A stretch of DNA of 20,000 bases from Psammoneis japonica (Eukaryota). The position numbers and the translations under genes were made by a program. Under the pieces are notes generated by a model that was not told where the DNA came from, made no database searches, and saw nothing but the letters and a program-made list of their open reading frames with translations. The stretch spans positions 183,249 through 203,248 of the forward strand of contig QPGO01000152.1 in the NCBI GenBank assembly GCA_008632985.1, in the 5' to 3' direction. Positions 1,212-20,000 of this stretch are shown here, one piece after another; the stretch's first letter is position 1, and each line of letters begins with the position of its first letter.

Positions 1212-4200
1212 ATGAGCGACATTGAAGTTGAAAAAGCCGTTTCGACCGAGGAGGGTGCCATGAATGGCTCCACCTCCTTGTTGGTGGAGGTCACGGATCT
1301 CGACGCCTTTCAAGGAGACACGCTAGAAGCAAAGATTGACAGTTTCATCGATGCTCATGGGATTGCCATGATTGCCAAGACGCACTGTCCCTTTTGTCTC
1401 GATGCCAAGGAGTTTCTGGCGGAGACTATGGGAGCCCGTGTGCACGTGATTTCCATCGATACGCATCCTGAAGGCGGCGAGATCTTTAAGATTGTCAAGG
1501 ACAAGACCAAGCACGCGACTGTGCCCGTCATTTTTATTAAGGGAAGGTTTGTTGGAGGCTGTGACGATATCAAGGCTCTTGACGCCAAGGACGAACTCGA
1601 AGACATGATTGGTGACCTTGTCGAGCATCCCAAGACGATTGGTACGGACACTCTCGAAACGGCCAAGCTTACTCCCAAAAGCCGCGGAACGGCTCGGAAT
1701 CCTCCTTTCTGGTTTCCGAACGTTGTCAACAATGTAAGTACGAGCTTGGAGTGCTCTATACTGTGCTGGCAAAGTCGTATCGCTGGTACTCACGCACGTT
1801 ATGTTTCTCCTCTTTTCAGTACGTTGTGAGGCTCACTGGTCTTCAAGTGTTTGGACTTTGCATTGTGAGCATGGTTTTCTACAAGGAGACCTGGGCACAA
1901 TACCTTGCTCCGGGCTTGCTTGTGGACTTTTGTCTACGCATGGTGGCTGGATCGTCGGTGTCGCCCTTGGGTATGATTGCAACCGTCGCTTCGGCACCCT
2001 TTCGCCCACAGTTTCGGCCAGGACCTCCCAAGCAATTTGCGGCGCTCTGCGGAGTATCCTTTACGCTCTTGGCTACCATTTTTTACTTTGTCGACTTTGA
2101 CGGTCGCGACATTGTCGCGGTTGTCATTCTTGGAATGTTGGCGGTTGCAGCTGGACTCGAGGCTTTCTTGTAAGTATTGAATGATTGATTGTGGTGTGGC
2201 TTTGTTTGGACTGCAGCTCACATAATTTTCGCTGCCGACTTTTTGGTTCTACCTACAGTGACTTTTGTTTGGGCTGTCTCTTCTTTAGCTATGGCATTCG
2301 GTTTGGGATATTTCCTGATAGTGTCTATCGTATTTACACGTCCTCCAAGCAAGAAGTCGAGGACAGCTGGGACTATATGTTTCAAGACTCTGGCGCTCCA
2401 AAGCCTGAAAAGGTGGATACCGATCCCACGAGCCCCGTTGCTCTCAAGTACAAGAAGAAGCTCGACGAATGGACCAAGGATGACTTTCACTTGGTTCGAA
2501 ACATGTCGGTTGGGTATTTTGCAATGCCGCTTGCCATTTTTGGACTCGCCACTGCCTTCAAGATTGGTTCAGAGTGGAATGAAGGCCTTCGTCAGCTTCA
2601 AAAGGAGAGCACTTCAACCTTTCAGGAGGTACCCGTTGCATGGTTTCAGACCTTCTCGGTAATTGGAGCTGTCGTGTTCATTATCTTCTTGGTCTTGTAC
2701 TGCATCCGCTTGTTTCAGTATCCCCACAAGTGTCAAACGGAATGGGAGTAAGTCAGGACAATCAAGCTGATCTCGTGTTCATTTGTGCCTGATACTCACA
2801 CTGTCCACACTGTTCTTGTCGTTGTTAGTTGTCCTCTCCGTTCTCCGAGCTTTGGAGCAATCACTATTTGTTTCATGTTAGGCGCTTTCTTGGTGTACGA
2901 CCAAATCAACGAAGATAACAACAACACGTCGACGTTTGCTCGTATTATTTTCTGGATGGGGGCTGTCGCGCAAGTCCTTTTGACCATTTCCAAGATGGGA
3001 GAGTGGATTGGGACTCGCCTTGAGCTTGAACACGTTCACCCTCATTGGATGATTCTTCCTGTTGGACTGTCCGTTGCAGCCCTGTGTGCTCCCATCATTC
3101 CCATGTTTGAGCAAGAGGAAGGCAACGAGGATAACCATGCGGAAGCCAACATTCTTGTTGGACGTTTCTTCTTTTCGTTTGCCTTTCTCATGTGGATCAC
3201 GCTTTTCGTCATTACGTTCTTCAAGGTGGCTACTACGCACAACTCTGACAACCGTATTCGTCACGGTGTTTTTATTTGGCTGGCGGCACCATGCATCATT
3301 GGTTTGGCGCAGGCCTCCATTTGCCTGTTGGAGGCTGAACAGGGGTTGAGGCCAGCTCAAGAATGCAGCAATGAATTCTCGAACTATTACTTTATTGGAA
3401 TGTTCTTCTTCCTTTCCTTCCTATGGGCGACTTTTCCGTACATTGGATTCTTTGGCAGGGACAAGTTCGGCATGGGATACTGGATTGAGTGCTTTGCATT
3501 TGACACTCTCGCAGCATGTTCTGCATTCTTTTACGCACTCAATGGATTCAACGCAAGCAAGACGCTCATGTACATTGGTCTTGTTGTGGCGTCAATTGCC
3601 AACATGGTGGCTTTGTGCCACACGATTGTCGCGATTATTCGTGGTCGTGGTGTATTTACTCCGGAAGTCAAGTGGGGACCTTTGTCCTTCATGAAGCTTA
3701 CCCACGAAGCGTTCCGTGGCAACATTGACAGACTTCGCACCCTTATTGACGCCGTGGATCTAAACGACAAGTCATCGCAAGGGGAAGCCAACCTTGGGTT
3801 ATTTGCTGCCTACTTCAATCGTTTCTGCATTGTTCACCATGAACACGCGAAACACGAAGATGAAGTGATCTTCAAGACCTTCAACGACTTCTTTAGTGGC
3901 CACACCAAGTTCTATAACGACGACCACGCGGCGGATCATATCAAGATGGAGGGCTGGCGCGAATCTTGCAACATGCTCTTGGATACGAATATGAGCAATG
4001 ACGTTCGTCAAGAGGCACTTGATTCCCTCAAAGCGGAACTCAACCCGTTCTTTGACCACTTTGAAGAACATCTCAGGGGCGAGGAAGCCAACCTCCAACC
4101 AATTGGAAGGAAGTACATTCCGCTTGAGCTCCAGAAGCAGATTTCACGTGAAGTGTTCCTCATTACGAGCGCTGAAAATTGGGAGGTCATTATTCCTTAT

Positions 4201-4475
4201 GTAGTGAACAATGTTCCGCGCCACTTGCAACGAGTGCGCTATCTCAAGGTCCTCCTTTGGGCGATGCCTGAGCGTGCCCAGCAGATTGGTGCAATCGTCT
4301 ATCGTAACTCCGATTCAGTTACCTGGGGTACGTGGCCACCTCTGAAAAGAATTCAATGCTTTCAACTTGAGGATCTTACCAACTGCTTTACTTTTTATCT
4401 CTTGCAGAACGTCTCAAGGTTGATGTTCCTGAAATGATTCCTCGTGCGGCTCCAGGTTGGAGGAGGTACTATTAG
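1212..4475 (+). CDS. Multidomain membrane protein, 975 aa: glutaredoxin + DUF4395-like TM domain + SLAC1/TehA (TDT family) channel + hemerythrin HHE domain; exons 1212-1733, 1820-2169, 2259-2747, 2829-4327, 4408-4475
   Basis: Four GT-AG introns (1734-1819, 2170-2258, 2748-2828, 4328-4407; donors GTAAGT x3 and GTACGT) join the four ORF-track pieces in phase. Total is 2928 nt, stop TAG at 4473-4475. Grx motifs: KTHCPFC, TVPVIFIKGRFVGGCDD. DUF4395-like motifs: FPNVVNNYVVR, GPPKQFAA, GLEAFFDFCLGC. TDT motifs: GYFAMPLAIFGLATAF, WLAAP, FGMGYWIECFAF. Hemerythrin motifs: THEAFR, HHEHAKHEDEVIF, DHAADH, HFEEHLRGEEANLQP. Confidence 0.9.
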
Positions 4476-4637
4476 GTTGGATGCTTAAAAGTTTGCCCTT
4501 GCACAATTCATGTACCCGTAGGAGTACGCATGAAAAGGAGCAATGGAAGCACCGCTTCCGTACTTCTTGTACCTCCTTGTACAAAGGATTGCGCGGATGC
4601 TTTCTGTATATATCTGTTAGGTTCAGTTTCCCTTATA

Positions 4638-7600
4638 TTAGTTTTTGTACCAATCCTCTCTAATGAACCTTGCGATTTCAATGATTTGGCCCAAGTTTGC
4701 TTCCCCCTCGTGTGTCTTCATGTGTGCAACATGTGACCTTTCATCACGGTATCGGACACGGCAAAATGGGCACAGGCGGTTCCTGATCAGCGTTTGACCT
4801 CCTTCAAGCATTTTCCTTCCTCGAGATACAACACGCAGCACCTCGGCAGTCGTTGATCTGGTCTGCTTTGCTTCTTTCGTCTTCTTCAGGACAGCTTCAA
4901 CCTTCCCAATCTGATACAATCGCAAGAAGTTCTTGTTGAAGATATTCTTCTCTGGCTCCCAAGTACATTCTTCCAGAGAAAATCCTTTCCATTTAATGAG
5001 ATACTCGTTGATCACTGTTCCTCTACCATTCTTCCTCTTTCGTTCGTCGAGGATACGTTCGGCTTGATATACATCGTCTCCAAACATCTCGAGCATCTGA
5101 TCCGCCTCAGAGGATGGATCTGAAGCAATCTCCGAAGACGATTCACGTTTATTAGATGATTCCTTTCGACTGCGACCTGGTACTTTTGGTGACCGAGATG
5201 ATAGACGTCTCTTCTTACTGTCGCCTCGTTGCTCAGCTCCCTTGCCCTTCGCATTTTCAGCCTCTTGCCGTCTTCTTTTTGCCCTTTCCGCGGGTGCTAT
5301 CATCAAGTGGTCGAATTCGTCAACGTCTAAGCAAACTTCCTTCTTCTCTTGCTTTGTGTTTTTTGAATCCACACCCCTCTTGTTTCGCACAGACTCGTGC
5401 TTGGAAGCGCGCTCTGATTGAGTGCTGGCAACGTCTGATTTTTCAGAATGGCTTTCACCTGTTTCTGCCTTCGAGACACTGTCCTCTTGTTCACCGGTTT
5501 CGTTCCGATTTGCATTTGCAGACATGATGGCAACTGCCTGTGATCCATCGGAAGGACTCGGTGTTCTTGAAGAAGCCCTCTTTTCTGCAGTATTCTCCTT
5601 TTGATCGCCGCCCACATCGTTTATACAATCTGCTGTATCAGCACCTAGATCTAGCTCAACTGTTGACTGTACACGAGATTTCGCGGCCTTCTTGCAATCG
5701 CTTGTCATGTCGCCGTCATCTGCTGCAGTGTTAGAAGCCGCCGACTTGCCATCATCTACCGTGGGATCATCAGAAGCTTTCTTGGGCATTGGCGAATGCA
5801 CAGCTTCACCGGCCTTTGTCGTCGCATCAACGGCAATAGTGCAATCATGAGAATTCTTCTCTGAAGTTGGTGATGGCACAGTTTCAAAGACTACAACCGG
5901 CGCATCTGTAACAGCGGCTTTATGATCGGAATCTTTCTCTGAAGTCGGCAACCGCCCAGTTTCAGAGAACTTAGGGCTAGCTGCTTTCGCATCAGCGGCG
6001 GCACTAACGCCCCCATCCTCGTCTAACCTTGGTGGCAGTACAGCTTGACAGGTATCGACAATGGCGTTTTCGTCGGGCTCTACAACCTCACAGCTCAACA
6101 CTGTGGAGTCCTTATTCTCGCCAGTATCGCATTCCAGCAAGTCGTTGCTCCCGGTGGTTATCTCGCAATCGCTCTTCTTAGACCCATATCCCGACTCCAG
6201 TCTGCATGGAGAGCCTTCGTCACTCCTTTTCTCCTCACACGCCAGTGTTGGTTCTTTTTCTTTGTAAGCAATGGTTCCAATTTCTTTTGGTTGCGCTATC
6301 ATTTCCTGGCATCTCAATCGTTCTCTCTCTTCCTTAAGCCGGAAATCAACGTCTCTCAGAAACTTTGAATGCACGGTGGGATGTGGACATTCACCAACAA
6401 TACGGAGTGAATCAGCGCGAAGCCAAATGGAAGCAGCGACAATAGAAGACCGTATAGGATGGCGTAACACTGTTCGAGCATCAGTGACCGTACGAGACGA
6501 CTCAACAATATTTTCCATTTGTAGCAACGGCCGGACCAATGCCTTCTGGCTGGCGGGGCAAACGGCGAGGATTACTCCGTATTGCAACTTGATCGGCTGG
6601 GAGTTCGACACGTAATCTTCCGCAACCGACTCAAAATCCGGTTTCCATGAGACGATAGAACCCAAGATCGTGTCACGCGGACTTGGTTCTTTCAGCGGCG
6701 GCTTCTCAGCCTCCCTGGCTAATACATGAGAAATCTTCCACGATGAGGCATCTTCACCGATCGCACCCATCTCAACAGCTGAAGAAATCGTTGACGAATC
6801 ACTTCTCGCCCGAATGATGAAGCCATCTTGCACTGTTTCTATGGCATCATGCCACTCATCGTTGCCTTCAAAGTCGTGTGTCCCGCATATTTCGCGAGCT
6901 TTGATGAGAGTCATGAGTAAGGATTTACATCCAAGCTCGCTGTTGGCCTCCTCTACTGCCTTGCGAAATAGACTCAAATCCCCTGTATAGTTTGCTGATG
7001 CTCCAACCAACTGGTTATAGGCAATTTCCTCGTAGTGTTGGAAGAACGGGAGAACAGCCGTAGCCCTGACACGATTAGACCCACTAATGCCATAGAATTT
7101 CACAACGTACGGGGTAGTTTCTGTTTGTCTTTTATTAGCCGCCCTCGGTTCCGAAACGATCATCACAATAGCAGGCCACCAATTATCTCTTCCTGGTAGC
7201 CCCTCTGCTGCGTTGCTTCTCCTTGCCCAACAAAGCTCTCCGACACTGAAATGGACTTCGGGAACTATTTTGTCGTTTACCTTGAGACTGGCTTGAACTG
7301 GCATAGCCCTGCGCTTTGTTTGGACTGGCAATTTATCGCGCGAAACCAACCCAAGAGCAGCCTCCCAGCTGTTATATCGGAAGTCTAATCCCATGTTCTC
7401 CGTCGATTGCTTTTCATTTCCGCTTTCGCCGCCGGTGGATATAGCCTTACTCTGCTCAATAACGAAACCATCGCATCCTTCTATTTCAACAACAGAGCTA
7501 ACGTCGGAATTGTAATTCAGACATTTGTGGCAGAACCAGTCACCCTCTGGAATTCTTCCTAGTGGTGGCTCGAGACACTTCGCATGAAAGAGGCAATCGC

Positions 7601-8903
7601 ACCCGTCACAAAGAAGAAGGTGTTCAGAGTCGAATCCACTCCGACATACTTCACATGCATTCGATCTAGCTTGATATTCGTATTCGCCATCTGAGCTTGC
7701 GTTTTCAAAGCTATCGTCCTTGAATACACCGCGAGCGCGACTTCTTCCGTTGCCCCTTCTGCGACCCGCATGTTTACTACGTTCTATGAAGCCCCGCGCA
7801 GTCCTCTGGATATTTATTTTCTTCGCCATCGCAACCATCGACGAAACAGGAGCTGAAAAATCAGGACATTCGACCTCATAGTGTCCCCATTTTTTGCAAA
7901 CTGAACACATCCTGAAAAAAGGCGACGCTACTGGCTGGTGAAATCTAGTCGAATTCATTGCTTTATCACGTTCTGCCCGCTGCCTCTCCCCTTTTGTGAG
8001 CCCCTCGTCTCTTTCTGCCCAGTTTGAGACACAAACAAGAGAGTATTCATTATAGACTAACGATAAAGGTGAAAATGACGAGGTCGATGACAATGACAGG
8101 GCCCGTTCGTTTTCTTTCTGGCGACCCAGAGCATTCTTTGAGCTGATATGAGATAATGCTTTCATTCCGTCCTCGGATTTCCGAAATCTCAAATAAACTT
8201 CACGTTCCAGCTCATCAAGCGTTCTTGAAGGGTTCTCTACCTTCTTTTTTTCTTGCTTCGTTCCGCATTCTTCCGACTGCTGAGTAGCACCACCAACTTT
8301 ATCGTTACTTTTCTTCCTTGTTCTATTGAACTTATTAAGCGCATACGGCACCAGGGAGAGCTCAGAAACTGTGGATCGACATTTTGAGTTTAGAGCTTCC
8401 TCTGTACATGCCGTTGTTGACAACTTGTCGTTATGACGATGTCGTCTAAGCATGCCCCGTTTCCGCCGTTTTTCAGAGTTGATCTCGAACAACTGCCTCG
8501 AGAAGCTTGTCCCTGTCTCTCTCGCCAAAGCAGAAAGACGTTCGGGGTCGCTTCGGAGGAATAAGCCAAGCAGCAACTCTTTGTGCCAGGCTCTTGTGTG
8601 ATGTTTCATCTCCTCCTCCTGCGTTCTTTGTCGCGGCTCTGCTCGCAGCAAAATACGATCATCATCGTGCCTTGTCTCGATGGATGGATTTACCTGCTGA
8701 TGCTGCTGGACCTCTTCTTTAGCGGCATCTACGAGAAGCCCATTCGTGTTCCTGGTGCCAGTGGCATCCGATTTGTTTTTATTCGCCATCGGCGTCATGC
8801 TGTTCAATTGGGCGGCGACCTCCTCAACTTCTTTTCGTTTTTCATCTTCACCAGCATCCAGCACCTCTCTTGGCGCTGCTGTTGCGTTGGTGCTCTCGTT
8901 CAT
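4638..8903 (-). CDS. Chromatin-reader protein, 1421 aa, single exon: CCHC zinc knuckle, PHD finger, PWWP domain, acidic disordered linker, chromodomain, C-terminal C2H2 finger
   Basis: Knuckle CSVCKKWGHYEVEC (~7865-7907). PHD CEVCRSGFDSEHLLLCDGCDCLFHAKCLEPPLGRIPEGDWFCHKC (~7521-7656). PWWP FSVGELCWARR...NWWPAIV...YVVKFYG (~7040-7255). Chromo YQAERILDER...EYLIKWKGFSLEECTWEPEKNI (~4940-5075). C2H2 CPFCRVRYRDERSHVAHMKTH. An in-frame TGA lies 5 codons upstream of the ATG. Confidence 0.9.
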   Translation of the reverse strand: MNESTNATAAPREVLDAGEDEKRKEVEEVAAQLNSMTPMANKNKSDATGTRNTNGLLVDAAKEEVQQHQQVNPSIETRHDDDRILLRAEPRQRTQEEEMKHHTRAWHKELLLGLFLRSDPERLSALARETGTSFSRQLFEINSEKRRKRGMLRRHRHNDKLSTTACTEEALNSKCRSTVSELSLVPYALNKFNRTRKKSNDKVGGATQQSEECGTKQEKKKVENPSRTLDELEREVYLRFRKSEDGMKALSHISSKNALGRQKENERALSLSSTSSFSPLSLVYNEYSLVCVSNWAERDEGLTKGERQRAERDKAMNSTRFHQPVASPFFRMCSVCKKWGHYEVECPDFSAPVSSMVAMAKKINIQRTARGFIERSKHAGRRRGNGRSRARGVFKDDSFENASSDGEYEYQARSNACEVCRSGFDSEHLLLCDGCDCLFHAKCLEPPLGRIPEGDWFCHKCLNYNSDVSSVVEIEGCDGFVIEQSKAISTGGESGNEKQSTENMGLDFRYNSWEAALGLVSRDKLPVQTKRRAMPVQASLKVNDKIVPEVHFSVGELCWARRSNAAEGLPGRDNWWPAIVMIVSEPRAANKRQTETTPYVVKFYGISGSNRVRATAVLPFFQHYEEIAYNQLVGASANYTGDLSLFRKAVEEANSELGCKSLLMTLIKAREICGTHDFEGNDEWHDAIETVQDGFIIRARSDSSTISSAVEMGAIGEDASSWKISHVLAREAEKPPLKEPSPRDTILGSIVSWKPDFESVAEDYVSNSQPIKLQYGVILAVCPASQKALVRPLLQMENIVESSRTVTDARTVLRHPIRSSIVAASIWLRADSLRIVGECPHPTVHSKFLRDVDFRLKEERERLRCQEMIAQPKEIGTIAYKEKEPTLACEEKRSDEGSPCRLESGYGSKKSDCEITTGSNDLLECDTGENKDSTVLSCEVVEPDENAIVDTCQAVLPPRLDEDGGVSAAADAKAASPKFSETGRLPTSEKDSDHKAAVTDAPVVVFETVPSPTSEKNSHDCTIAVDATTKAGEAVHSPMPKKASDDPTVDDGKSAASNTAADDGDMTSDCKKAAKSRVQSTVELDLGADTADCINDVGGDQKENTAEKRASSRTPSPSDGSQAVAIMSANANRNETGEQEDSVSKAETGESHSEKSDVASTQSERASKHESVRNKRGVDSKNTKQEKKEVCLDVDEFDHLMIAPAERAKRRRQEAENAKGKGAEQRGDSKKRRLSSRSPKVPGRSRKESSNKRESSSEIASDPSSEADQMLEMFGDDVYQAERILDERKRKNGRGTVINEYLIKWKGFSLEECTWEPEKNIFNKNFLRLYQIGKVEAVLKKTKEAKQTRSTTAEVLRVVSRGRKMLEGGQTLIRNRLCPFCRVRYRDERSHVAHMKTHEGEANLGQIIEIARFIREDWYKN

Positions 8904-9255
8904 CTTCGGTGTCGATCAGAATAGTAAGTTCCTCTCTAATATACAACAGCGCACTAGAGGCTATGCTCACACGACAGAACTCTGTGTGATCTTCACCCTC
9001 GCGCCAGAGCTAGAGTGGCGCGTACTCTAGAGTATTAGTGATAGAGTGTTACAGAAATCGAGATTTGCCGATAACAGCAGAGAGACAACGTTACACCGAC
9101 CAAATGAGTCGGGATGACTGCTTCCTGTAGTGCCTGGTGTCGTCACGGCAAAAACTCAAAAGGAAGACCTCCAAGAAAACTAAAGCGATTCGACGCAGCA
9201 AGGACTTTTAGGGTGGGGTAGGGCCTAGGTTGTCTTTCTCGGAGGGCGGGTGTAT

Positions 9256-9501
9256 CTAAAAACAAGAAGAAGAATAGGCGCGTAAAGAGAGAGGAAGAAG
9301 CACCGAAGGGATTAGAATGTGAATGTCAACAAAAAGTGCACAGCAGAGGAACGACGATCCATGGCATTGTCGAACCGGAATGAATCGCACGAAGAGAGCG
9401 GGGAATAGAAACACTCCCTTCGTCAGAAAAGACAATCCGCGCAACCGCGGGCCGGCTCGGCTCGGCAAAAAAATGACAGACGACACACGAGACAGACTCA
9501 C
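9256..9501 (-). other. Putative 246-nt spliceosomal intron in a non-coding context (5'UTR of the chromatin gene or a separate non-coding transcript)
   Basis: Minus strand shows a GTGAGT donor at 9501, a CTAAT branch-like motif near 9311-9315, a long pyrimidine tract and a TTTTAG acceptor ending at 9256. The upstream exon has only 4-7 codon ATG ORFs. Confidence 0.5.
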
Positions 9502-10110
9502 GATCGTATTCAGAAACCAATCGGCAGCTTCTATTAATTCCCTTGATAGTTCCACTTCCAGTGTGTATCGTCTACTCCTGTCGCGCTATTAACATGCAAG
9601 AAACTACTCTACTGCACCTAATAAGCACTCATTGGCGTTGAGTTTATTTCGCTGCGAAGTCACTTCCGAAAAAAAAAGCTACGTACAGCGCCGGCATCGC
9701 CCGAAATAAAGTGTCGCGTCTCTGGTGTCCGGAAGTACATTATTTACACCTACGTATCTGTAGGTTGTTGAGAAAATCTCATTTACAAGCAGAACATCTT
9801 GTCAACGACAAGTTGTACCATTTGGGACGTATGTACAAATGTACTTTACTTTGTATGAAATGATTTGTTATCTACATATCAAATATATATGAAGTATTTG
9901 TACCTTCTACGTCACAACTTAGTCGTCCATATGCCCCTCTTTAAATAATTCGACTGTAGGGAGGGCCTAGTAGGAATCTACGTAGAGCGCGAGCGAACCG
10001 TCGCCAATCAGCAACCATGAAAGACCATGGCAGAGCTGGAACTTAGTTACTACTTACTCGCTCGTCTGAAATCACCTTCCCACTCTCGATATCCATAAAA
10101 GGAAAGCATC

Positions 10111-11089
10111 ATGCCGCCAAGGCCAAGCGTACCAGTGTCTCATTCTCCAGGCTCTCGGCCCATGCAGCGAAACAGTTCTGCAGCGTCTGCGAACGGCGGT
10201 GGTGCAAACACAAACAAGACGAGCATCCGAAAGAAATCACAAAATGTCAAGGCATCCCTAGACGATTCCGCTACACGTTCCAAGTTTCAAAATGACAGTG
10301 GCACTTCAGTGCCCCAGTCTGAAACTGATAATTTAAACAGCGCCGCAATGGCAAACAGCAGCATGTTGGGCGCAACAGGGACGACCGGCATGTTCAGCGG
10401 TGGGATGATGATGGGATCTCCGTACGCTTCTCCATATGGATATGGAGGCATGATGCCTGGTGGGATGATGCCCGATATGGCCTTTTCTGGTTTGAATCGG
10501 TTTCTATTTGGTGTTCAGAGCGTCATTTTCTCACTGGGTCAAGCAGTTCAGGTGTGCGCGTGCTTGATCTATTTGTTCTTCGTTTTCTAGTTTGTTCTAG
10601 TTTCTTATGAATACATCGCCTCTTTTTTTTTTTAAGATAATGGGGATGAATACCCAGGCGCTACGTCAGCTACTAGACACAGCGAGTGCAATGTTTGATC
10701 ATGCGTTGGCAGCTTGGAAAGAAATGAGAGCGTTGGAAGTTGCCGCACATGCCTCCGAGTCGGAAGAAGACAAGAAGAAGAGAAGGCGACTGAAGACTCT
10801 GCGCTGGACCATGATGGTTGGTCTTTCTTATGCTCTCTACAAATTGATTCGTCGAGTACTTTTTCCCGCTAGGCGAAGGATGGGTGCTTTGGGGAATGGG
10901 TCGCATCACCTTCCGCTAGGTTATGATGGCAGTCGTATGCTTCATGGGGAAACAGCCGGTTATGGGAGCGGTGGCTACGGTAGCTATGGTAGCTCTCACA
11001 TGTTTCCATCCTATGGGGGAGGTGGAGGATATGCTTACAACAGTAGCCCGTATGGTCCAGGTAGTGGATCTTACCCCGGTTACTATTGA
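10111..11089 (+). CDS. PEX13: Peroxin-13-like peroxisomal membrane protein (SH3-less type), about 297 aa; exons 10111-10551 and 10637-11089
   Basis: An 85-nt intron (10552-10636, GTGTGC...polyT-AAG) joins two ORFs in phase 0. G/M/Y-rich segment followed by FLFGVQSVIFSLGQAVQIMGMNTQALRQLLDTASAMFDH, resembling the plant-type PEX13 core (…LIDQNTQAFH…), then a basic patch, a TM helix (LRWTMMVGLSYALYKLIRRVL) and a YG-rich tail. An alternative in-frame acceptor exists at 10600. Confidence 0.65.
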
Positions 11090-11607
11090 ATTACAAATTG
11101 TGTGGTATTTTACTGCGACAGCTCTAGAGGGAATGTTCCAGTCACGCGGTCTGTCACCAAGAATTTCAGAAGCATATATCGGGAGCAAGTTACTGAGAAC
11201 AGTCGTATCGAGGATCCTAGATCGTTCATGGAAGTCTGGCTGATATGACAACAAAACCCGCCGCAAGGGCATGTTCCGCTTTGATGACATTGTCAATCCA
11301 GTGGCTAAATCTACGACTAATTTCTTCGTTAAATCCGTCTAGCATTCCTCCTAATAGAATATTTTTCACTTTTTCTTAATGGGTCTTCTACGTTGCAATG
11401 CCAGTCTTGAGTTGTGATACATACACCCCCTGTACACGGCAGTCTGGCCATGTCTTCCGCCTTGGGACTATCGGGACGCACAAAAATAGAAGTACCTACC
11501 ATAGAGCGGCGGAAACGTCTATGGTACATAGTGGAGAAAAAGACTAGAAATCACAAAAGTCTCCTCGTTATGTCTATTCTGTTTCTCTTTTTTCTATTTT
11601 CTCCGAC

Positions 11608-13686
11608 TTAGAGGAAGGTCTCGTTGGCCGCTTCCACGACAGGAGGGGCGACGCGCGACTTGCCTGAAGCACTGCCACTTTCGTCCTTAGTAGTATCGTT
11701 CGACGCCTGGTGGACAAACACGTCTTGTTCCGCGCCTTGTTGGTTCTTCGCGTGATGCGAAGCCAGCTTGTAGATCATCTCGACGAGGCCGGAACGATAT
11801 TTCTCTGACCCGCCCGTCACATCATCAACTGCACGGAACAGAGAGATGGGTAACGTCAGCAAGATCAACGCAATAACAGATACGTCGTATGCTACGGCGG
11901 GCGAATAAAAAAACACGAGACTTACGGCTAAGCCTACTTGGACCACCTCCAACTTTGCCTCCATTGGCCACTTCGTAGAAATAAGATGGAAAAACTCAGG
12001 CTTGAATTCCACATTCTCGCTAATGAATTCTTCGATCCTACGATAGAATGATTTGAAGGAAGGAGGGAAACGCGTTTTGGCCTTAGCCCACTCTTCTGAG
12101 CTGACAAACTTGGGATGTTCTCGCTTTCTTTTCTTCCCGCTCTCTGATCTAGGATTCGAAACCGATTCCTTGTTGTCCTGCTGCTTGGGTTTCTCAGCCA
12201 CAGCTTGTTCCTTCGCAGCCTTCGCGGTTTCGATTGCTGCTTCTTGTCTCGCCTTGGCCATACTGCGAAGCTCAACAGCCACGGGATGATCCACAACCCT
12301 GTAGAACAGCATGTAGGCTTCGGCGCTCTTGACTTCTTGGTAGGAGGCTCGGGTAACACGTGCATCGTCCATCTTCCACCAATCGTTCTTCTTGCCGACA
12401 TTTCTCACATAGGAGATGTAATGGCCAGAATGGCTGTTCTTGCCAGCATGTACCACTACCGCAAAGAGACGGCACAAGATGGGCTTGCTCTTCTTCTGAA
12501 GCTCTTCCGTTAGGTAAGGACGAATGTCAAGGATCTCATCAAACTTGATATGGCCCTCAATCTTGGCAGATCCGGAGCCTCCATAATATTCGGCAGTGTT
12601 GCTACCGAGAAGTTGGCTAAGCTCGGATCGTCCAGTGCGACGTGTTGGGGGCTGGGAACCCCCACCTGCACCGCCCTTGTCTGACGAACCATATCGAAAA
12701 CGCTTGAGGTGAAGCGTCAAGATGGGAGGGATCGAGGCGAGTCGACTCTGCTTGGTAGCGCGACCCACCTTACCACACTTATCGCACTTGTAACCCGAAT
12801 CAAGAGACTCGGCTTTAGCAAAGCGTTGAAAGGCTTGCGACACATCCGCCAACGCCGAGGAGGGAGGAGGAGTCGAGGAGCGGGATGTCCTTACGTCACT
12901 TGATAGCGGAGTCACTTCAAGTCCAATGTCTTCAATCGGATCGATCTTGGAGCTGGATGTCTTGCAGGAACCACAGGTGACAGTTGATTTCACTGTACCT
13001 CTGAACAGCTTGAAAGGATATTCGTTTTCTACTTCGTTTTCCTTCTGATCTTCGTCTTGAGTGGAGTTCTGCGAGCTGTCCTTGTCGTTACTTCTCGCAC
13101 CAGCACAGCTCTTCTGCATAGCGTCAATCAACAGGCGAAGGAACTCGTGGGAATCTTCTTGGACCCCAAGTTTGAACCATGGCGCTACTTGAGATACGAA
13201 ACCATGAACAAAAGCGTGCGGAGCAATAGCATCTGCCTCTGGTTTCGATGCTGCTGTTGAGGCCGTGTTGACTGCAGGGTCGTGTACGCGTGCAAGATGC
13301 TGTTCCACTTCACACAGGGCACAAAACTGCAGATCTAAACCATCTTCACCATCACTACTGGCAGGACTCTTCCTTCCCGACCTTCGTGATTTACGAGTAC
13401 CCCCACTGGCTGCTTTCTTTTCTGGTGCTGTAACTGTGTTTCCTTCAGGACTCGGCTGCGGAGAAGCTCTGCTCTTCTTCTCCGCATTCTCCTTTGCAAT
13501 CGGACACGTGATATGATGAGGTTCATAATCCATCGCCATACACAATTCTGGAGCATGAGCCAGAGCTTGCAACACAGCATTCATGTAGCAAGTGCTTCCC
13601 AAATTGGTCATTCCCAATGCAACCTCTCGCTTTACCTCCGTTGGAGGCACGAATGCTGCAGACAACGACTCCTGCACTTGCACCAT
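11608..13686 (-). CDS. Ubiquitin carboxyl-terminal hydrolase (USP/peptidase C19, USP36/42-like); probable intron 11829-11925 and probable 1-nt indel just upstream of it
   Basis: Cys box GMTNLGSTCYMNAVLQAL, QEDSHEFL, LTLHLKRF, His box HAGKNSHSGHYISYV, WWKMDDARV, AYMLFY. The first ATG is at 13686; the ORF-track start at 13845 is a TTG. Confidence 0.92.
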   Translation of the reverse strand: MVQVQESLSAAFVPPTEVKREVALGMTNLGSTCYMNAVLQALAHAPELCMAMDYEPHHITCPIAKENAEKKSRASPQPSPEGNTVTAPEKKAASGGTRKSRRSGRKSPASSDGEDGLDLQFCALCEVEQHLARVHDPAVNTASTAASKPEADAIAPHAFVHGFVSQVAPWFKLGVQEDSHEFLRLLIDAMQKSCAGARSNDKDSSQNSTQDEDQKENEVENEYPFKLFRGTVKSTVTCGSCKTSSSKIDPIEDIGLEVTPLSSDVRTSRSSTPPPSSALADVSQAFQRFAKAESLDSGYKCDKCGKVGRATKQSRLASIPPILTLHLKRFRYGSSDKGGAGGGSQPPTRRTGRSELSQLLGSNTAEYYGGSGSAKIEGHIKFDEILDIRPYLTEELQKKSKPILCRLFAVVVHAGKNSHSGHYISYVRNVGKKNDWWKMDDARVTRASYQEVKSAEAYMLFYRVVDHPVAVELRSMAKARQEAAIETAKAAKEQAVAEKPKQQDNKESVSNPRSESGKKRKREHPKFVSSEEWAKAKTRFPPSFKSFYRRIEEFISENVEFKPEFFHLISTKWPMEAKLEVVQVGLAVSLVFFYSPAVAYDVSVIALILLTLPISLFRAVDDVTGGSEKYRSGLVEMIYKLASHHAKNQQGAEQDVFVHQASNDTTKDESGSASGKSRVAPPVVEAANETFL

Positions 13687-14380
13687 GATTTCCGACCTAG
13701 TCCTTCTCAGGACTTGCCTAGGAGGTGTAAGAAGCCTCGACAAGGGCCCCACGAACGAGAATCTCGACTGAGAACGACGGTTGCTGTCTAATGTGCATGC
13801 TTCTGAGCACACACTCACTCCTTGTTCCTGTTTCGATCGTTGCAAGCCGCTGTGGACGTGTGGAAGTGCGCAACGAACGCTTCGGTCGATCGTCGATTCT
13901 TGGCCTCTTTGGGCCTGTCCTACGTGGTTTGACTACCGAAGGCTACGTGGTGCCGTCGGATGGAGAAATTGGGCGCGGCCGGCAGTCCGATAAATAATGA
14001 CAGAAGGAAGACTTAAAGGCTCTGTTGGTATTACCCATACAGATACGTACAAAGTTAAACATTTTAATCCTCCTGTCTTAGGATAAATTCTTTCTCTTAG
14101 CCTTAAGTGACATAACGTCATATTCAACCGTCAACTGAAAATTCGCCGGCAGGCAAAAAAGTGAAAGTGGAGGACGACGGACTGGCAAGCAAGGTTCCGT
14201 CGAATTCTTGCGTTGATCCCTAAACGGTACTACTAGGGCCCTACTACTGCAATGTAAAGTCTATCTCTCTCTAGCTAGAGCAAGAATATGTATCACTAGA
14301 GACCTACACGCTAGACTTATCCTATAGGCCACTCCTCTCCCTCCGCCAGAGCTAGCCAGCGTCCTTCGTTGTGTAACAAG

Positions 14381-15567
14381 TCAGCTACTACAGTGGGCGG
14401 GGTCGGCGCTAGCAGCGTTCTCCACATTTTCAACCTTCGCGCCAAATTCTTCAACGTCCTTAAAGAATTTACTCGTCTCAACAATCTGTCCTTGCATTGA
14501 GAGGCCTACTTTGTGTATGGAACCGTCCAGCAATTGAACAATACACGCGGCCGCAGGAATGGCCGTCAACATGTAGGCATCTTCGTGAGACACAGTCATG
14601 CTATGAAGAACAGGTCTCCCACCCTTATTCCCGCGAGCATCCAGCTTCAGCATTGTTCCATAAGGAGGCGCTGAGAAGGTTGTCACTCCCCAATGAAACA
14701 TTTTTGCTATTCGACGTCTCCCTGCATTTGGAAACAATGAAATCCAAGCCCAAATAAGTGGTGACAGGACCCAGTCCACGAACCAGTTGAAACCTCCACA
14801 AAGAATCCAGTTTCTTTGAGTGAAGGATAAAGGGTCGGTAGCAATCGTAACTCTTCTAGAAACATTGGTATGCATTGCCGACGTCCAAACCTTTCGCCGA
14901 AATCGATTGTTTTTGGATTCATCATTCCCCACGCGCCAGGGTCTTTCCATTCACCGTCCTTGTAATATTCGCATTGAAAATCTTTGAACTCGTCAATAAA
15001 TTCCAACAAAGTTGAATCAGTTAGGTCTAGACTCGCCCAGTCGATGGCTATTACTGACCCAATGTTGGCAACTTCCAAGGAATCCAGCTTTGTTGCGACT
15101 TGACGAACCATTGCGGAAGGCAGACCTGGATGAAAGCCGCCCTCCGTCACAAAGCAAAGTCCAGCCTCCTTAATTTCATCTTCCATGGATTGGAGGATAC
15201 GCAGTTTGGATGTTGAATACTGCAAATCAAAATAATCGACCTTGTGCTCTATTGCTGTAGATGCAACGAGCGAAACATACTGCGAAGTACTTGATGCCAC
15301 CACAACTAGGTCGCACCCTCGCACAGCCTCGGAAAGAGATGATTTTTCAGATGCATCAGCATAAATGCCCTGTACGCGACACATACCACCAGTCGAAGAA
15401 TTCAGCGAATCTGCCGCCTCTTTTGCCTTTTCAATGTGGCGCCCTGCAAGAACGAGAAGAACGTTGGGTAGAGCTTGTAGAAGCAGTCTTGCGAGTGGCA
15501 GTCCCGCGCTTCCATAGCCCCCAAGGATTAAGATTTTGGTCTTTTTGTCTGAGAGTGATGTGGCCAT
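14381..15567 (-). CDS. Saccharopine dehydrogenase-like NAD(P)-binding oxidoreductase, about 395 aa if repaired; split by a 1-nt frameshift at ~14797 (assembly error or pseudogene)
   Basis: Rossmann motif ILILGGYGSAG, LVLAGR, VDYFDL, EGGFHPGLPS. ORF 14707-15567 runs to LKETGFFV and ORF 14381-14950 continues GGFNWFVDWVLSP...DAYMLTAIPAAAC. One missing base in TTT GT(N) GGA GGT restores a single frame, and there is no room for an intron. Confidence 0.8.
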
Positions 15568-15826
15568 TGGTTTGCTTTACATAGCGATACAATCTTGGTA
15601 CCGTCAACGTCCCTGTTGTTTAAGTTGCTCAAGATAGTGTTGCGTTGCGGCGTAGTTGTCGTTGTTCGTTGTCAAAAACAAAAGAAATGAGAACTCAAAA
15701 TATGACGAAAGAGTTTACCGCCTAAATGGCATAAATTGGAATTCATCTGCGGTCGCGTCTCGCGTCGACGCCACACCATGACAGGAGAAATTGAAGCAAC
15801 TTCAGCACCGCCATTGACAATAAACA

Positions 15827-16786
15827 ATGTCGGACTCAAAGAAAAAGACGACCTCTAGGAGAGACTCATCGTCTTCTACTAGCAACACCATGTCAAAGAA
15901 TGAACTCTACACCCCTCTCATGGCCTATGATCAGGATGAGAAAACAACCGAACATCCTTCGCTGTACATGTCAAACAGAAAAAGTGGAGTGCCCAATTCA
16001 TTACGAGAATCGTCCCTGGTAGAGTTCTGGCAACGTGTGAGCATAGATTACCACCGAAATGCCACATACCATGATGCAACAAACAACAGTTCTCGACCGC
16101 TTTCGAAAAAGGACGTAGAGGACAGAATACGACAACGTGCGCTGACGCTTACTGGCGGAGGCTTCAGCACATCACTCGGCCAAGGAGGCAACAAGAAAAA
16201 GAAACGGGCCATAAAGTCTCAGAGACCTGCTGGAACAAAATCAAAGCGTCAAATGAAGAAAATTATAGTGGCATCACGAATCGAAAGTAAGTCCATGGAG
16301 AGTAATCATAGCACAAAAAGTGGAGCTTTCAAATCGCCTAGCTCCGAAAAAGGGAAGGTTTGGTCTACCGAAGTTCTTCAGAAGCTTAACAGAATGTGGA
16401 TAAAATATGCACAGTCGCTACTTCCTCCCCGCCCGGAAAGAGAACCATTCTCAATACAAGACTACAGCAAATCTCTTTCCAATGGCTCTTATTCACGCTC
16501 TATGGCAGCTGCGGAACTGGTGGGAGCCAAGGTCGAGGTGACAGGGTGTGCTGCGCATCCTTCTCTCGTGGGAAAGTCTGGCATTGTGGTGGAAACTCCG
16601 AAAACTTGTTGGAAAGTTGCCATTTTCAGAACTCAAGAGAAAATGGCAGCTTCTCAGTCATCCGTAACGAGCTGGAAGGTATGTATTGTTCCAAAGCTCA
16701 ACTCGAAACTTGCGATACGAGTCCCCCTTCCCGCTTGCACAGGTCATTCAGTTGTTGTGACCATTTACGGGTGCTCGACAGCATAG
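15827..16786 (+). CDS. POP4: RNase P/MRP protein subunit p29 (POP4/RPP29), 319 aa
   Basis: C-terminal pattern LQKLNRMWIKYAQSLL...AAELVGAKVEVTGCAAHPSLVGKSGIVVET...IVPKLNS matches the Rpp29 motifs (LxxLWxxY, ADLHGA, PSxVGxxGI, IPK). The N-terminus is basic. The gene is divergent from the oxidoreductase gene across 259 bp. Confidence 0.8.
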   Translation: MSDSKKKTTSRRDSSSSTSNTMSKNELYTPLMAYDQDEKTTEHPSLYMSNRKSGVPNSLRESSLVEFWQRVSIDYHRNATYHDATNNSSRPLSKKDVEDRIRQRALTLTGGGFSTSLGQGGNKKKKRAIKSQRPAGTKSKRQMKKIIVASRIESKSMESNHSTKSGAFKSPSSEKGKVWSTEVLQKLNRMWIKYAQSLLPPRPEREPFSIQDYSKSLSNGSYSRSMAAAELVGAKVEVTGCAAHPSLVGKSGIVVETPKTCWKVAIFRTQEKMAASQSSVTSWKVCIVPKLNSKLAIRVPLPACTGHSVVVTIYGCSTA

Positions 16787-17266
16787 ACAAATGGGTTGCG
16801 GAATGTTGATCAGGTTGTGCATGTTAGGATCACTTTTTCGCCAGCTAGCCCGCCTACGCTGATAATCCAGAGCTTTGACAGCGCCGCTTCCATAATGTGT
16901 ACCGTAGCATCACAGGATCCTGTGAATGAAGTTGAGAAGAAGAAGCAAATCTCAGCGATATTCGTGGTGTGATGAAAGCCTACCGCACTATCTACTCTGC
17001 AAAGACGAGAGACAACTACAGGTACGGCCCTAAACAAACGGTGTGGGTAGCACATCTATTCCAGAGCTGTTCCTCTAATACAATTTATTCGGAAAATCTG
17101 AAACTAGAACCCCTAGTAAATCAGCAATGCGTAACCCAAGTGAAAGAACAAGTAACAACCTCATTGCATTATAAGTCCCAAAGAGACTATCACTCGCCCC
17201 AAAATCACATCCCAATCACACTCGTGACCAACCAAGAGGACCACATCCAGATTGCTAGCATTTCAT

Positions 17267-17733
17267 TTATTCGTCAGCAAGAGGAGGGGCAAGGTAAAGG
17301 ATCAATGCCGCAAGACTGGCAATTCCGAAAACAGGGAAGAGGGCTCCACCGAAGTCAGAGGAAGTCGATGCGACAAGGTTTGCAGTAGAGGCAACACTGC
17401 TGATAACCTCAGTACCTTCGACCATCATCTGGGGTGCCTCAGTTCGGGTGAATGCCGGGGAAGAGACTGAAGAGAGAATCGATCAAACGAACAAAGAAGA
17501 TAACGTGAGTTCTGAATCCAGTACATCGCAACTTTGACCTGACGACATGGATTGCAGGTACAATGAGTGCCACGTCTGCAGTGGATGGGTTTGCCTCCGA
17601 CGATCATGCCTTGAGGTCGACCCATCTATGAACTCATTTGTTTTCCTCACTCACCAGCAGCACGGTTAGCCGGGGCAACAAAGGCCGAGGCGACAGCCAA
17701 GATCATGGCAAAGACGAAAACAACGCGAACCAT
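17267..17733 (-). CDS. Small nucleus-encoded plastid-targeted single-TM protein, 92 aa; exons 17733-17655 and 17466-17267
   Basis: A 188-nt phase-1 intron (17654-17467, GTGAGT...CTCTCTTCAG) gives MVRVVFVFAMILAVASAFVAPANRAAVSSPAFTRTEAPQMMVEGTEVISSVASTANLVASTSSDFGGALFPVFGIASLAALILYLAPPLADE*. It has a signal peptide, ASA-F cleavage motif, transit peptide and C-terminal hydrophobic helix. Absent from the ORF track. Confidence 0.85.
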
Positions 17734-17957
17734 TTTCCTTGATATATATCCAACAATCGAATGCAACAAGAGGATGTGTGTGGCAATGGATTCGAGAAAG
17801 CAACTTCATCTCGTGCGTCAAGCACTTCGGTGTCGCCAGTATTGTTTCGCTGTAGAATCTACGAGCGATGGTTTGCCGATCTTCGAGTGCAACTTCCGGG
17901 TGTCTTCGGTTCAAACGTCAGCGGTCAGAAACGCGACAAGGATAGATTGACAGACGG

Positions 17958-18013
17958 ACCCAACAATTGTGTCCGCCCGCCCTTCCGTCCTCAGGGGTCA
18001 ATAATTGTTGGGT
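17958..18013. repeat. 13-bp inverted repeat (1 mismatch, 30-nt spacer) at the border of the degenerate repeat region
   Basis: ACCCAACAATTGT (17958-17970) versus ATAATTGTTGGGT (18001-18013). Confidence 0.6.
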
Positions 18014-18068
18014 TGTTGCCATCGACTGGTCGTGTGAAAATGGCACCGTGGGGACGTCATCCAAGCTT

Positions 18069-18946
18069 TCAAAAAGTCTCTTTATGGAACAGGAATGGGG
18101 CGGCTCCAGGCATGGCCTTAGCCATGATTCTCTGCTGCACGTTGCGCTGCAGGCTCTTTGCGGTCTTTTTCCAAAATGGCGAACAAGCTGATCTGTTTGC
18201 ATCCTCTGGTTTGGCAACAGTGACACCCGGCATCATTTTCTCACACAAGTCTTCCCTTCCGGTGGGGCTTCCTTGGTTGTTGAGCTCCACATCATGGTCT
18301 GACATCAAACAACTGCCCTTGTTGTTGCTCTTGTGCTCCATGCACCATGCTGCAAAGTTGTTTTTCAGGAGCATGTGGGCAAATGCCTTGGCACATGATG
18401 TGCCCAACCTTGTGTTGTCAGAGAGGCTTTTCTTCCAATGGATGTCTCCCATGGCTGGTTGCAACAAGCAGTCACAGAACACTGTCTGCAACACTGGATT
18501 CCACAGTTGATCCTGGAGTTGTTCCGGTGAAGGCAAGATGCATTTGTTCTTGTGCAGCATGCACAAGCACTGTGTCATCAGCAACAACATGTTCCTGATG
18601 TCAGCTTGTCATCTCCTCATCCACGACAATCCTTGGCAACAGCACTCACTGTCAAATTTGCTTTGCTGGGCCTAACGTGCATTGGATCGCTTGCTTCATT
18701 GCTGGCCAATCCTGGCACAACCTGTTTTGTTTCATTTTCATCCACAGGAAATGCAGGCATGTTTTTTGCTCTGCTTCCAGCAGGTCCACTGGCATTCTGT
18801 TCATCAGCATCAGCCCACAATTCTGGGCATGGTCTCTGCACAGCATGCCAGTTTCCTCCAACTGTCTCACATCAAAGACAAACGTGACACTGAGAAGCAT
18901 CTTTTCTTTGACATGGTCTCTCACCTTGACTGTGTCTCTGCCCACC
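18069..18946 (-). pseudogene. Fossil ORF of an uncharacterised, probably repeat-associated protein, broken by stops/frameshifts and interrupted by the mini-LTR insertion
   Basis: Minus-strand segments GRDTVKVRDHVKEKMLLSVTFVFD...LCRDHAQNC...LHFLWMKM (18652-18946) and LPSPEQLQ...AKAFAHMLLKNNFAAWCMEHK (18069-18590) read like a globular protein with His/Cys where Tyr might be expected. The two segments are in different frames. Confidence 0.5.
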
Positions 18947-19393
18947 TGCAGCATGCATGCAGACAAAAGGTCATTTTTGTCACGCCCTTTGTGACATTTA
19001 AAGGCTGCAACACGTCGCCGTGATGCATTGGCTCTCATCAGTGGCTGTGTGCTGCACTCCTCCCCATGTGTCACGCGTCCATGCAGCTCTTTGCTGACGT
19101 GCACTGACACTGCACGGTTTTGGCGGAACAGTGTGGGTGCGTGCGAAGGAACACACAGAACTGCACAGAGTTTTGCGCATTCGACAGTGATCAACGTTGC
19201 TGCAGACAACTCCCACTCAGGGTTTCGAACCCCTGGCCTCCTGCCCAATGGTTGCGATGAACCACTCCGCTGTGAATTCACAATGCAGCATGCATGCAGA
19301 CAAAAGGTCATTTTTGTCACACCCTTTGTGACATTTAAAGGCTGCAACACGTCGCCGTGATGCGTTGACTCTCATCAGCAGCTGTGTGTTGCA
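18947..19393 (-). mobile_element. Non-autonomous miniature LTR retroelement (TRIM-like), 447 bp; LTRs 18947-19056 and 19284-19393
   Basis: Two 110-bp direct repeats with TG...CA ends and 6 differences. A 4-bp target duplication CACC sits at 18943-18946 and 19394-19397, and the empty site GTGTCTCTGCCCACCTTCTTC is preserved at 19441-19461. A polypurine tract GGGGAGGAG (minus, 19065-19057) abuts the LTR and fixes the orientation. The 227-bp interior has no recognisable gag/pol sequence. Confidence 0.85.
19218..19272 (-). promoter_or_regulatory. tRNA-like Pol III internal promoter (A box + B box) inside the mini-LTR element
   Basis: Minus strand: CAGCGGAGTGG (A-box consensus TRGCNNARYGG, T>C at the first base) with a D-stem-like GCG...CGC, then GGTTCGAAACC (B box) within CAGGGG-TTCGAAA-CCCTG. 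There is no intact acceptor or anticodon stem. Confidence 0.55.
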
Positions 19394-19498
19394 CACCTTC
19401 TTCTGGATTGACGAGTCTCTGCACTTTGGTTGCCACAACTGTGTCTCTGCCCACCTTCTTCTGGATTGATGAGTCTCTGCACTTTGGTTGCCACAACT
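19394..19498. repeat. 58-bp-period tandem duplication in the host sequence; the first copy is interrupted by the mini-LTR element
   Basis: CACCTTCTTCTGGATTGA(C/T)GAGTCTCTGCACTTTGGTTGCCACAACT starts at 19394 and at 19452, with a single CG/TG difference. The 5' part of copy 1 lies at 18929-18946. Confidence 0.85.
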
Positions 19499-20000
19499 TT
19501 GTGTTGTTTTCTGAGGGGGTTGTTGTTTCATCAGTGCTCCTCCCAGTGCTGGTGGTGTGCACATTGCTGCCCGGCCATTTGCCGCCGCAATCTGGGGATT
19601 TCCCTGCATTTGCAAATGTCATGGCCTGAGCGTCAGACAGCCATCAATTTGCTTGTCATCACATGTTCACTGACACAATTTGAGCTCACTAACCTGAGTT
19701 TCAAAAACACAGCATTTGGCTGGGACTGAATGTTCAAAATGCCAATTTTTCAAATTCCGTTTCCCACAATTCCAACATTTGTGTCTGTCCAGCTGTGGGG
19801 CGTGCCGCTCTCAATCAGCTCTCACACCTGCACAACAATCTGATGTTAAAATCAACCAATTCACTTGCTTCCTGCAGTTCTCCCTTTGTTTTCATCAATC
19901 TTGGAATCCCCACCCTGCAATTTGATCCTTGCGCATGGTTTGTTCCTGCTGTTGCCAGTGCAAGCCTTGCTGAGTCAGTTGCGTCAATGTTGCTGCTGGT

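Follow-up and report, generated by a model that had tools for sequence, protein, structure and literature searches.

The window analysed here, a stretch of 20,000 nucleotides (nt) from the diatom Psammoneis japonica (contig QPGO01000152.1, positions 183,249 to 203,248), ends on its right side in a zone of repeated DNA, 18121-20000, in which the dinucleotide TpA (written TA in most places below, as are CA, TG and CG) has almost disappeared. This zone holds the truncated accessory gene of a predicted Plavaka-type DNA transposon, a short high-copy element inserted in the transposon remnant, and a low-copy right part (Table 1). Comparison with homologous loci from other organisms supports a history in which TA was the ancestral state and was converted to TG or CA on both strands.

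Table 1. Features of the TA-poor zone and of the gene remnant in it (positions in the window; Tyr, tyrosine; Y in codons, pyrimidine)
Feature	Position	Strand	Remarks
TpA-erased zone	18121..20000	.	CpG-poor, CA/TG-rich; open at window end
Open frame, 179 codons	18069..18608	-	residues ~20-138 form a Tyr-less, C-terminally truncated accessory-protein copy
Homology core to accessory proteins	18201..18539	-	tblastn E 5e-18 (L009 protein), 1e-17 (L008 protein)
Predicted Tyr to Cys change, TAY to TGY	18474-18476	-	now TGT; Tyr in 33/34 homologues
Predicted Tyr to Cys change, TAY to TGY	18468-18470	-	now TGC; Tyr in 27/34 homologues
Predicted Tyr to His change, TAY to CAY	18333..18335	-	now CAC; Tyr in 22/34 homologues
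Predicted Tyr to His change, TAY to CAY	18294..18296	-	now CAT; Tyr in 33/34 homologues
Interspersed element of ~446 nt, terminal direct repeats	18948..19393	.	inserted in transposon remnant; CACCT on both flanks
Direct repeat D1, copy 1	18947..19061	+	115 nt, 94% identical to copy 2
Direct repeat D1, copy 2	19284..19398	+	
D2, two tandem units of ~58 nt	19390..19502	+	in host element
Low-copy right part, no recognisable coding	19399..20000	.	TA 2 observed, 38.0 expected; no Pfam or transposase match

A candidate transposon remnant forms the host element

The 179-codon open reading frame (ORF) in the left block of the zone has 100 homologues at E<=1e-3 in a search of 1.84 billion representative sequences (best E 1.4e-16, 41% identity), and a BLASTP comparison with the protein P0121 gave an E value of 5e-29 at 40% identity. 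The homologues are proteins of ~270-335 amino acids (aa) encoded on environmental contigs of 1-6 kb. They have in common a conserved, tyrosine-rich N-terminal domain, and a Pfam search of these proteins found no domain. The window copy aligns to just residues 1 to 110-145 of its relatives and ends near the repeat border.

To place this family in a genomic context, metagenome contigs were scanned with the alignment of the homologues, which recovered 33 loci (L001-L033). The neighbour of the accessory gene in these relatives, in head-to-head orientation, is an ORF of 1,204-1,355 aa that bears the Plavaka transposase domain PF18759, scored at 33.1, 36.7 and 23.7 bits in three loci, the last being below the cut-off of 26.3. 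A tblastn search located the transposase upstream in 9 of the 33 loci. Nine loci extend 1,500 nt or more upstream of the gene, and 8 of these have it. Because the family adjoins a Plavaka-domain transposase in the relatives, its genomic context identifies it as a predicted accessory gene of Plavaka-type cut-and-paste DNA transposons. This arrangement is what the window shares with the Plavaka / CACTA-Mirage-Chapaev transposons; it differs from them in that no transposase is detectable in the window. Searches of the window by tblastn with the transposases of four relatives gave nothing below E 0.06, and neither terminal inverted repeats nor a target duplication of a Plavaka-type element was found in the window. 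The gap between accessory gene and transposase in the relatives is 64-1,150 nt, and the window ends ~1.4 kb upstream of the accessory gene. At such distances the transposase gene would be expected past the window end, and 19399-20000 is probably the region between the two genes.

Pfam searches of 16 zone ORFs at E<=1 gave noise only, with the top match far below the cut-off; codon-position scoring of the zone frames gave a weak signal that decided nothing; a word-based protein search with the window ORF, in a database that lacks the organism's own proteins, gave no match; and viral contigs searched with the accessory-protein alignment gave 0 confirmed matches. Across loci L008, L009, L019, L022, L025 and L027-L030, which are environmental contigs of eukaryotes, the accessory family (~290 aa) has an N-terminal CxxC, the Tyr-rich domain, a KKKRK stretch and a GWS motif.

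A short high-copy element is inserted in the remnant

The middle block is an interspersed element with terminal direct repeats. At 18947 and 19393 other contigs continue into unlike flanks, and one contig lacks the insert and passes from 18921 to 19461. The differences between the two D1 copies include CG/CA twice and a TG/CA swap once. The summed contig depth of the element is ~1,300-2,400x that of unique DNA, which places it among the commonest repeats of the genome.

The element may be like a short interspersed nuclear element (SINE) or like a terminal-repeat retrotransposon in miniature (TRIM); the latter is suggested by the 115-nt terminal direct repeats. On its minus strand, near 19220-19270, lie a GGTTCGAAACC-like B box and a AGCGGAGTGG-like A box, motifs that resemble those of RNA polymerase III promoters. 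ARAGORN and Rfam returned no tRNA and no Rfam match at the gathering threshold, and no tRNA was found at E<=10 on 18900-19520. A 24-nt stretch of the element had 0 matches when metagenomes were scanned for it.

TA is nearly absent from the zone

The 1,880 nt of 18121-20000 contain 5 TA, at 18673, 18999, 19336, 19690 and 19847, where 115.5 are expected from composition (observed/expected, o/e, 0.04). CG is also low (42 observed, 114.0 expected, o/e 0.37), and CA (215 observed, 105.5 expected, o/e 2.04) and TG (223 observed, 124.8 expected, o/e 1.79) are high. The total of pyrimidine-purine (YpR) steps is close to expectation, with CA and TG making up nearly all of it. In 20,000 mononucleotide shuffles of the zone, TA had a mean of 115.5, a standard deviation of 8.0 and a minimum of 85, so that the observed count lies at z = -13.8. 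The TA rate in the rest of the window predicts 74 for the zone (Poisson P(<=5) = 1e-25). Other 1,880-nt windows, taken from 1-18120, have a median TA o/e of 0.58 and a minimum of 0.40, and the zone contains the window's four longest TA-free gaps, of 554, 354, 337 and 326 nt. The loss extends over all sub-blocks of the zone, which have 1, 2 and 2 TA where 51.5, 25.4 and 38.0 are expected.

GC-biased gene conversion was considered as a cause. The o/e values of AA, AT and TT in the zone (1.24, 0.90 and 1.10) are without depletion and therefore reveal no general shift from A/T to G/C, which rules this process out.

The surviving TA all lie in TAA, in the contexts CCTAACG, TTTAAAG (twice), ACTAACC and GTTAAAA. 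Three of the five are part of the palindrome TTAA, and two of these three are copies of one repeat. We make no claim for a protected TAA context, because two survivors are copies of one repeat and because other copies of the high-copy element read TAA at 19096, where the window reads TGA. A preliminary description of this DNA, made from the sequence alone, had given the same five positions for TA, a TAA context for each, ten TA in the nearby interval 17041-17160 and an enrichment of CA and TG. Our recount agrees on each of these points.

Within the window, the loss of TA is confined to repeated DNA

To compare the TA-poor zone with the extent of repeated DNA, contigs from public sequencing runs were aligned to 16001-20000. 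The summed contig depth is 58 up to ~18144, rises to 315-1,727 over 18145-18948 and to 78,000-142,000 over 18949-19350, then falls to 15,606 over 19351-19484 and to 108-266 over 19485-20000. The last TA before the zone is at 18119, and repeated DNA starts at ~18145-18180, at most ~60 nt away, with a step in depth to 467 and more. The flank 17001-18120 has 37 TA where 71 are expected (o/e 0.52), close to the window median. At this one locus, the loss of TA is thus limited to mobile DNA at the border and the adjoining host flank is unaffected. Blocks within the zone differ ~1000-fold in copy number and are all TA-poor. Erasure of TA is restricted to the repeat DNA of this window.

An artefact of sequencing or assembly, for example miscalling at a modified base, could produce such a zone. 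The four runs that supply the depth represent one sample of one study. They may be the data from which the assembly was built, so that they are not independent support. Against an artefact, a 23.5-kb k-mer contig at unique depth spans 16001-18393 and enters the zone from the TA-normal flank with 2 differences in 2,393 nt; the reads therefore support the zone sequence across the border. Moreover, the changes are codon-coherent with a real protein family, and other copies show ordinary polymorphism, with TA at some sites. We regard the chance of an artefact as negligible.

Homologous loci point to an ancestral TA

To determine the direction of change, we compared the window ORF with homologous coding DNA in its relatives. 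TA o/e is 0.48-0.77 in these sequences at 33 of 33 loci, and none of the 400-nt windows in the 83,123 nt of these loci falls below 0.14. Tyrosine was examined at alignment columns with a residue shared by half or more of 34 homologues. Consensus tyrosines are kept in the window copy at 0 of 9 columns, compared with 33 of 54 for other consensus residues (Fisher p 0.0006). Stricter thresholds gave 0 of 6 compared with 27 of 41, and 0 of 4 compared with 20 of 31. The window ORF has 0% tyrosine where the family median is 4.6%, and 8.9% cysteine plus histidine where the family has 3.5%. At seven core tyrosine columns the window copy has the codons CAG, ACA, TGT, TGC, TTT, CAC and CAT, four of which lie a single TA to TG or TA to CA change from TAY (Table 1).

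To polarise dinucleotides, the window copy was aligned by codon with 29 non-redundant loci. None of the six consensus TA sites retains TA in the window, which has CA at three of them, TG at two and TT at one. All four consensus CG sites have changed, to TG at three and to CA at one. By comparison, 58 of 113 consensus dinucleotides other than TA (CG included) are kept (Fisher p 0.028 compared with TA). Collectively, the normal TA content of the relatives and the loss of both tyrosine codons and consensus TA from the window copy show that TA was ancestral and was then converted to TG or CA. The near equality of CA and TG (215 and 223) shows that both strands were used.

Three of the environmental homologues, the proteins P0207, P0216 and P0177, have cysteine or histidine at several conserved tyrosine columns (NCYHYEC, CCYCY-M and ----YYC). 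Replacement of tyrosine by cysteine is unusual in working proteins, and these residues might reflect partial conversion of TA in copies from other species.

The polarity bears on whether a mutational process is needed at all. An intrinsic or selected composition, in which TA is avoided on account of a TA-cutting nuclease, TA-targeting insertions or UA-specific RNA decay, would fit the TAA context of all five survivors and the apparent sharing of the TA-free state by copies of the left part (see below). However, the relatives are TA-normal at every locus, and the non-coding parts and the unrelated insert are as TA-free as the coding remnant. No other 1,880-nt window falls below a TA o/e of 0.40. 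The window copy has also lost nearly invariant tyrosines (present in 33/34, 32/34 and 33/34 homologues) and its C-terminal half, from which it follows that it is not a maintained gene. We therefore consider this explanation very unlikely.

The strand symmetry bears on a further alternative, ADAR-like editing of adenine to inosine (A-to-I) in the RNA of the element, whose edited copies would then be reverse-transcribed and inserted. ADAR-type enzymes prefer a 5' U, and this suits a change from TA to TG, as is also remarked in the main text of a preprint on the chlorarachniophyte Bigelowiella natans (bioRxiv 10.64898/2026.01.13.699255), and the high-copy insert could be a retroelement. In contrast, editing of a single strand predicts TG on the sense strand only, which does not agree with the balance of CA and TG. 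The host element is moreover the predicted remnant of a cut-and-paste DNA transposon, which has no RNA intermediate, and this excludes the route for that part of the zone. ADARs are known only from animals. This route is highly improbable.

Other copies in the genome still carry TA at some sites

Comparison of the zone with other copies in the same genome revealed 356 variant places (266 transitions and 90 transversions), of which 40 are listed. At three sites of the high-copy element where the window reads TG, other copies read TA: 19093 (45% of depth), 19096 (43%) and 19175 (37%). The 40 listed variant places include nine adjacent paired CA/TG swaps in this element. Eight swaps among the listed variants have unequal contig counts, and their excess points to a residual TA in six and to a residual CG in two. 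CpG is present in 99-100% of the depth at 19085 and 19179 of the high-copy element. This persistence suggests that CpG decay is slow there and is therefore an unlikely source of the near-50:50 swaps.

Other genes in the window

The genome of this diatom is gene-dense, and Pfam matches in the window are to a glutaredoxin, a SLAC1 channel, a chromo/PHD/PWWP protein, a UCH hydrolase and others. The UCH protein is 60% identical to its best match and 46-55% identical to its best named relatives, from Nitzschia, Epithemia, Cylindrotheca, Seminavis and Mayamaea. A frame of 1,425 codons (4638-8915, minus strand) combines PHD, PWWP and chromo domains in what resembles a multi-reader chromatin protein and lies 9 kb from the TA-free repeat. 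On the plus strand, 2185-4437 encodes a SLAC1-type anion channel with a hemerythrin HHE domain after it in the same frame. At 2751/2752 the channel sequence passes from one frame into an adjacent one, as would be expected of an intron or a frame break.

Discussion

We consider it likely that the zone is the remnant of a Plavaka-type transposon with its insert, altered by a TpA-specific transition process at the DNA level that amounts to targeted hypermutation of silenced or foreign DNA, as in B. natans. The zone would then be dead mobile DNA, a truncated Plavaka-type remnant carrying a short high-copy insert. Its TA would have been changed almost to exhaustion into TG (A to G) or into CA (T to C, the equivalent on the other strand), with ordinary CpG decay superimposed on this conversion. 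Targeting of silenced or foreign DNA is suggested by analogy with B. natans. The likeliest chemistry would be that an enzyme deaminates adenine to inosine where a T precedes it on the 5' side, on either DNA strand. The preliminary description had proposed a mutation of repeat DNA from TA to TG or CA on both strands, and this core of it is supported by the locality of the loss (the depth step at ~18145, next to the last TA at 18119), by the polarity of the substitutions relative to other loci (consensus TA to CA three times, to TG twice and to TT once) and by the balance of CA and TG. It had also raised the prospect of a family that is TA-free by nature, which does not agree with the 33 TA-normal relatives in other organisms, and of a sequence that raw reads do not support, to which the contig matching the border region is the reply, albeit from a run that may be the assembly's own.

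Several observations weigh against targeted hypermutation. The polarised counts are small (six TA sites and nine tyrosine columns) and come from a single fragment, and the outgroups are distant, being proteins of 24-47% identity from other organisms. Three of the seven core tyrosine codons (CAG, ACA and TTT) are not single TA transitions. In the high-copy element, the coupling of adjacent changes was inferred from similar depths, not observed. All 12 variants listed for the moderately repeated left block are transitions; one of them is a CA/TG swap, and in none is TA alone restored. The 5-30 copies of the left block at >=80% identity therefore seem to share the TA-free state, so that most of the erasure would predate their last duplication, which speaks against independent mutation of each copy in place.

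The main alternative to deamination as the chemistry would be a mutagenic modification at the palindromic TpA step, analogous to methyl-CpG. Here a symmetric base modification at TpA of silenced DNA, such as 5-hydroxymethyluracil (5hmU) or an adenine mark, would mispair at replication and turn TA into CA or TG. TA and CG are both self-complementary YpR steps, both collapse to CA and TG in the zone, and the outcome is strand-symmetric. According to PMC11572971, 5hmU made by a TET/JBP enzyme is enriched on transposable elements and aids silencing in dinoflagellates, which also belong to the stramenopile-alveolate-rhizarian (SAR) group. In contrast, the term TpA occurs 0 times in the text of that paper, and sequence alone cannot tell such a modification from adenine deamination. 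We judge a base modification to be rather unlikely.

The closest known system is that of B. natans, as described in the main text of the preprint by Mettrop et al. (bioRxiv 10.64898/2026.01.13.699255, 2026). In mutation-accumulation lines of this alga, two integrated viral regions mutate ~1000x faster than the rest of the genome, and 230 of the 231 mutations in them are A>G or T>C, all of those at TpA; the hypermutation is active in some lines only. In this genome, windows poor in TpA and rich in CpA/TpG form 124 clusters, and 324 low-TpA coding sequences are enriched in reverse transcriptase (RT) and DDE transposase domains. The authors hypothesise adenine deamination, with an ADAT2-like candidate. 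The process that the preliminary description had called a reverse of fungal repeat-induced point mutation (RIP), and had set apart from RIP, has thus been in print since 2026 for a chlorarachniophyte.

The window resembles the B. natans regions in the change from TA to TG or CA on both strands, with TpA loss accompanied by CpA and TpG gain, and in the confinement of this change to foreign or mobile DNA with a sharp local contrast, to which the DDE and RT enrichment of low-TpA sequences corresponds there. It differs in lineage, a diatom (stramenopile) rather than a chlorarachniophyte (rhizarian), and in target, a DNA-transposon remnant with a short high-copy element rather than giant-virus and virophage inserts. 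The erasure is nearly complete here (o/e 0.04), compared with a Rho of 0.45 in the nucleocytoplasmic large DNA virus (NCLDV) region there, and strong CpG loss coexists with it. Mutation was measured in real time in B. natans, whereas the window holds the end state in its sequence. On this comparison, the window fits hypermutation of the B. natans type on three of four defining features, the fourth being a measured rate.

Other systems share parts of this pattern. As in fungal RIP, dinucleotide-specific transitions have ruined repeated or mobile DNA and left a sharp compositional island. Ascomycete RIP, in contrast, changes C to T mainly at CpA, which depletes CpA and TpG, creates TpA and lowers GC; the zone shows the reverse, with TpA lost and CpA and TpG doubled. 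The change from CG to TG or CA that methyl-CpG decay produces is present in the zone, where no consensus CG is retained, and the CpG loss in the zone is consistent with cytosine methylation of diatom transposons. However, such decay cannot remove TpA, and the TA loss (0.04) far exceeds the CG loss (0.37). APOBEC and ADAR editing resemble the proposed process as deaminase-driven, context-specific hypermutation of mobile elements that is fossilised in the genome. They differ in acting on cDNA or double-stranded RNA intermediates with a strand bias, and the zone lacks the A>G bias to the transcribed strand and the RNA intermediate expected of ADAR-type hyperediting: both strands of a predicted DNA transposon are affected equally.

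A literature search found no report of TpA-specific hypermutation or of a RIP-like dinucleotide signature in diatoms, and the word diatom occurs 0 times in the text of the B. natans preprint, supplements aside. What is new here is the diatom lineage, the DNA transposon and short interspersed element as targets, and the near-complete erasure. Before 2026, the textbook cases of a host mutating its invaders were fungal RIP and animal APOBEC and ADAR editing. The B. natans preprint concerns a single chlorarachniophyte; the window adds a diatom example in which the signature has reached its end state and the targets are transposons, not viruses.

We tentatively raise the possibility, which we hold to be somewhat less than even, that diatoms possess the TpA mutator of Bigelowiella or a symmetric mark. 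Such a system would be old, possibly SAR-wide, and chromatin-targeted; it would act beside cytosine methylation and run to completion on transposons. If this is true, TA-free 'fossil' islands in diatoms, which are major primary producers of the ocean, would mark silenced foreign DNA across the genome and could be read from sequence alone. If the signature proves genome-wide, the TpA process would be no oddity of one alga, and its enzyme would become tractable through comparative genomics (presence or absence across diatom genomes) and diatom genetics. Repeat annotation and the dating of transposable elements in such genomes would then need correction, because hypermutation inflates divergence.

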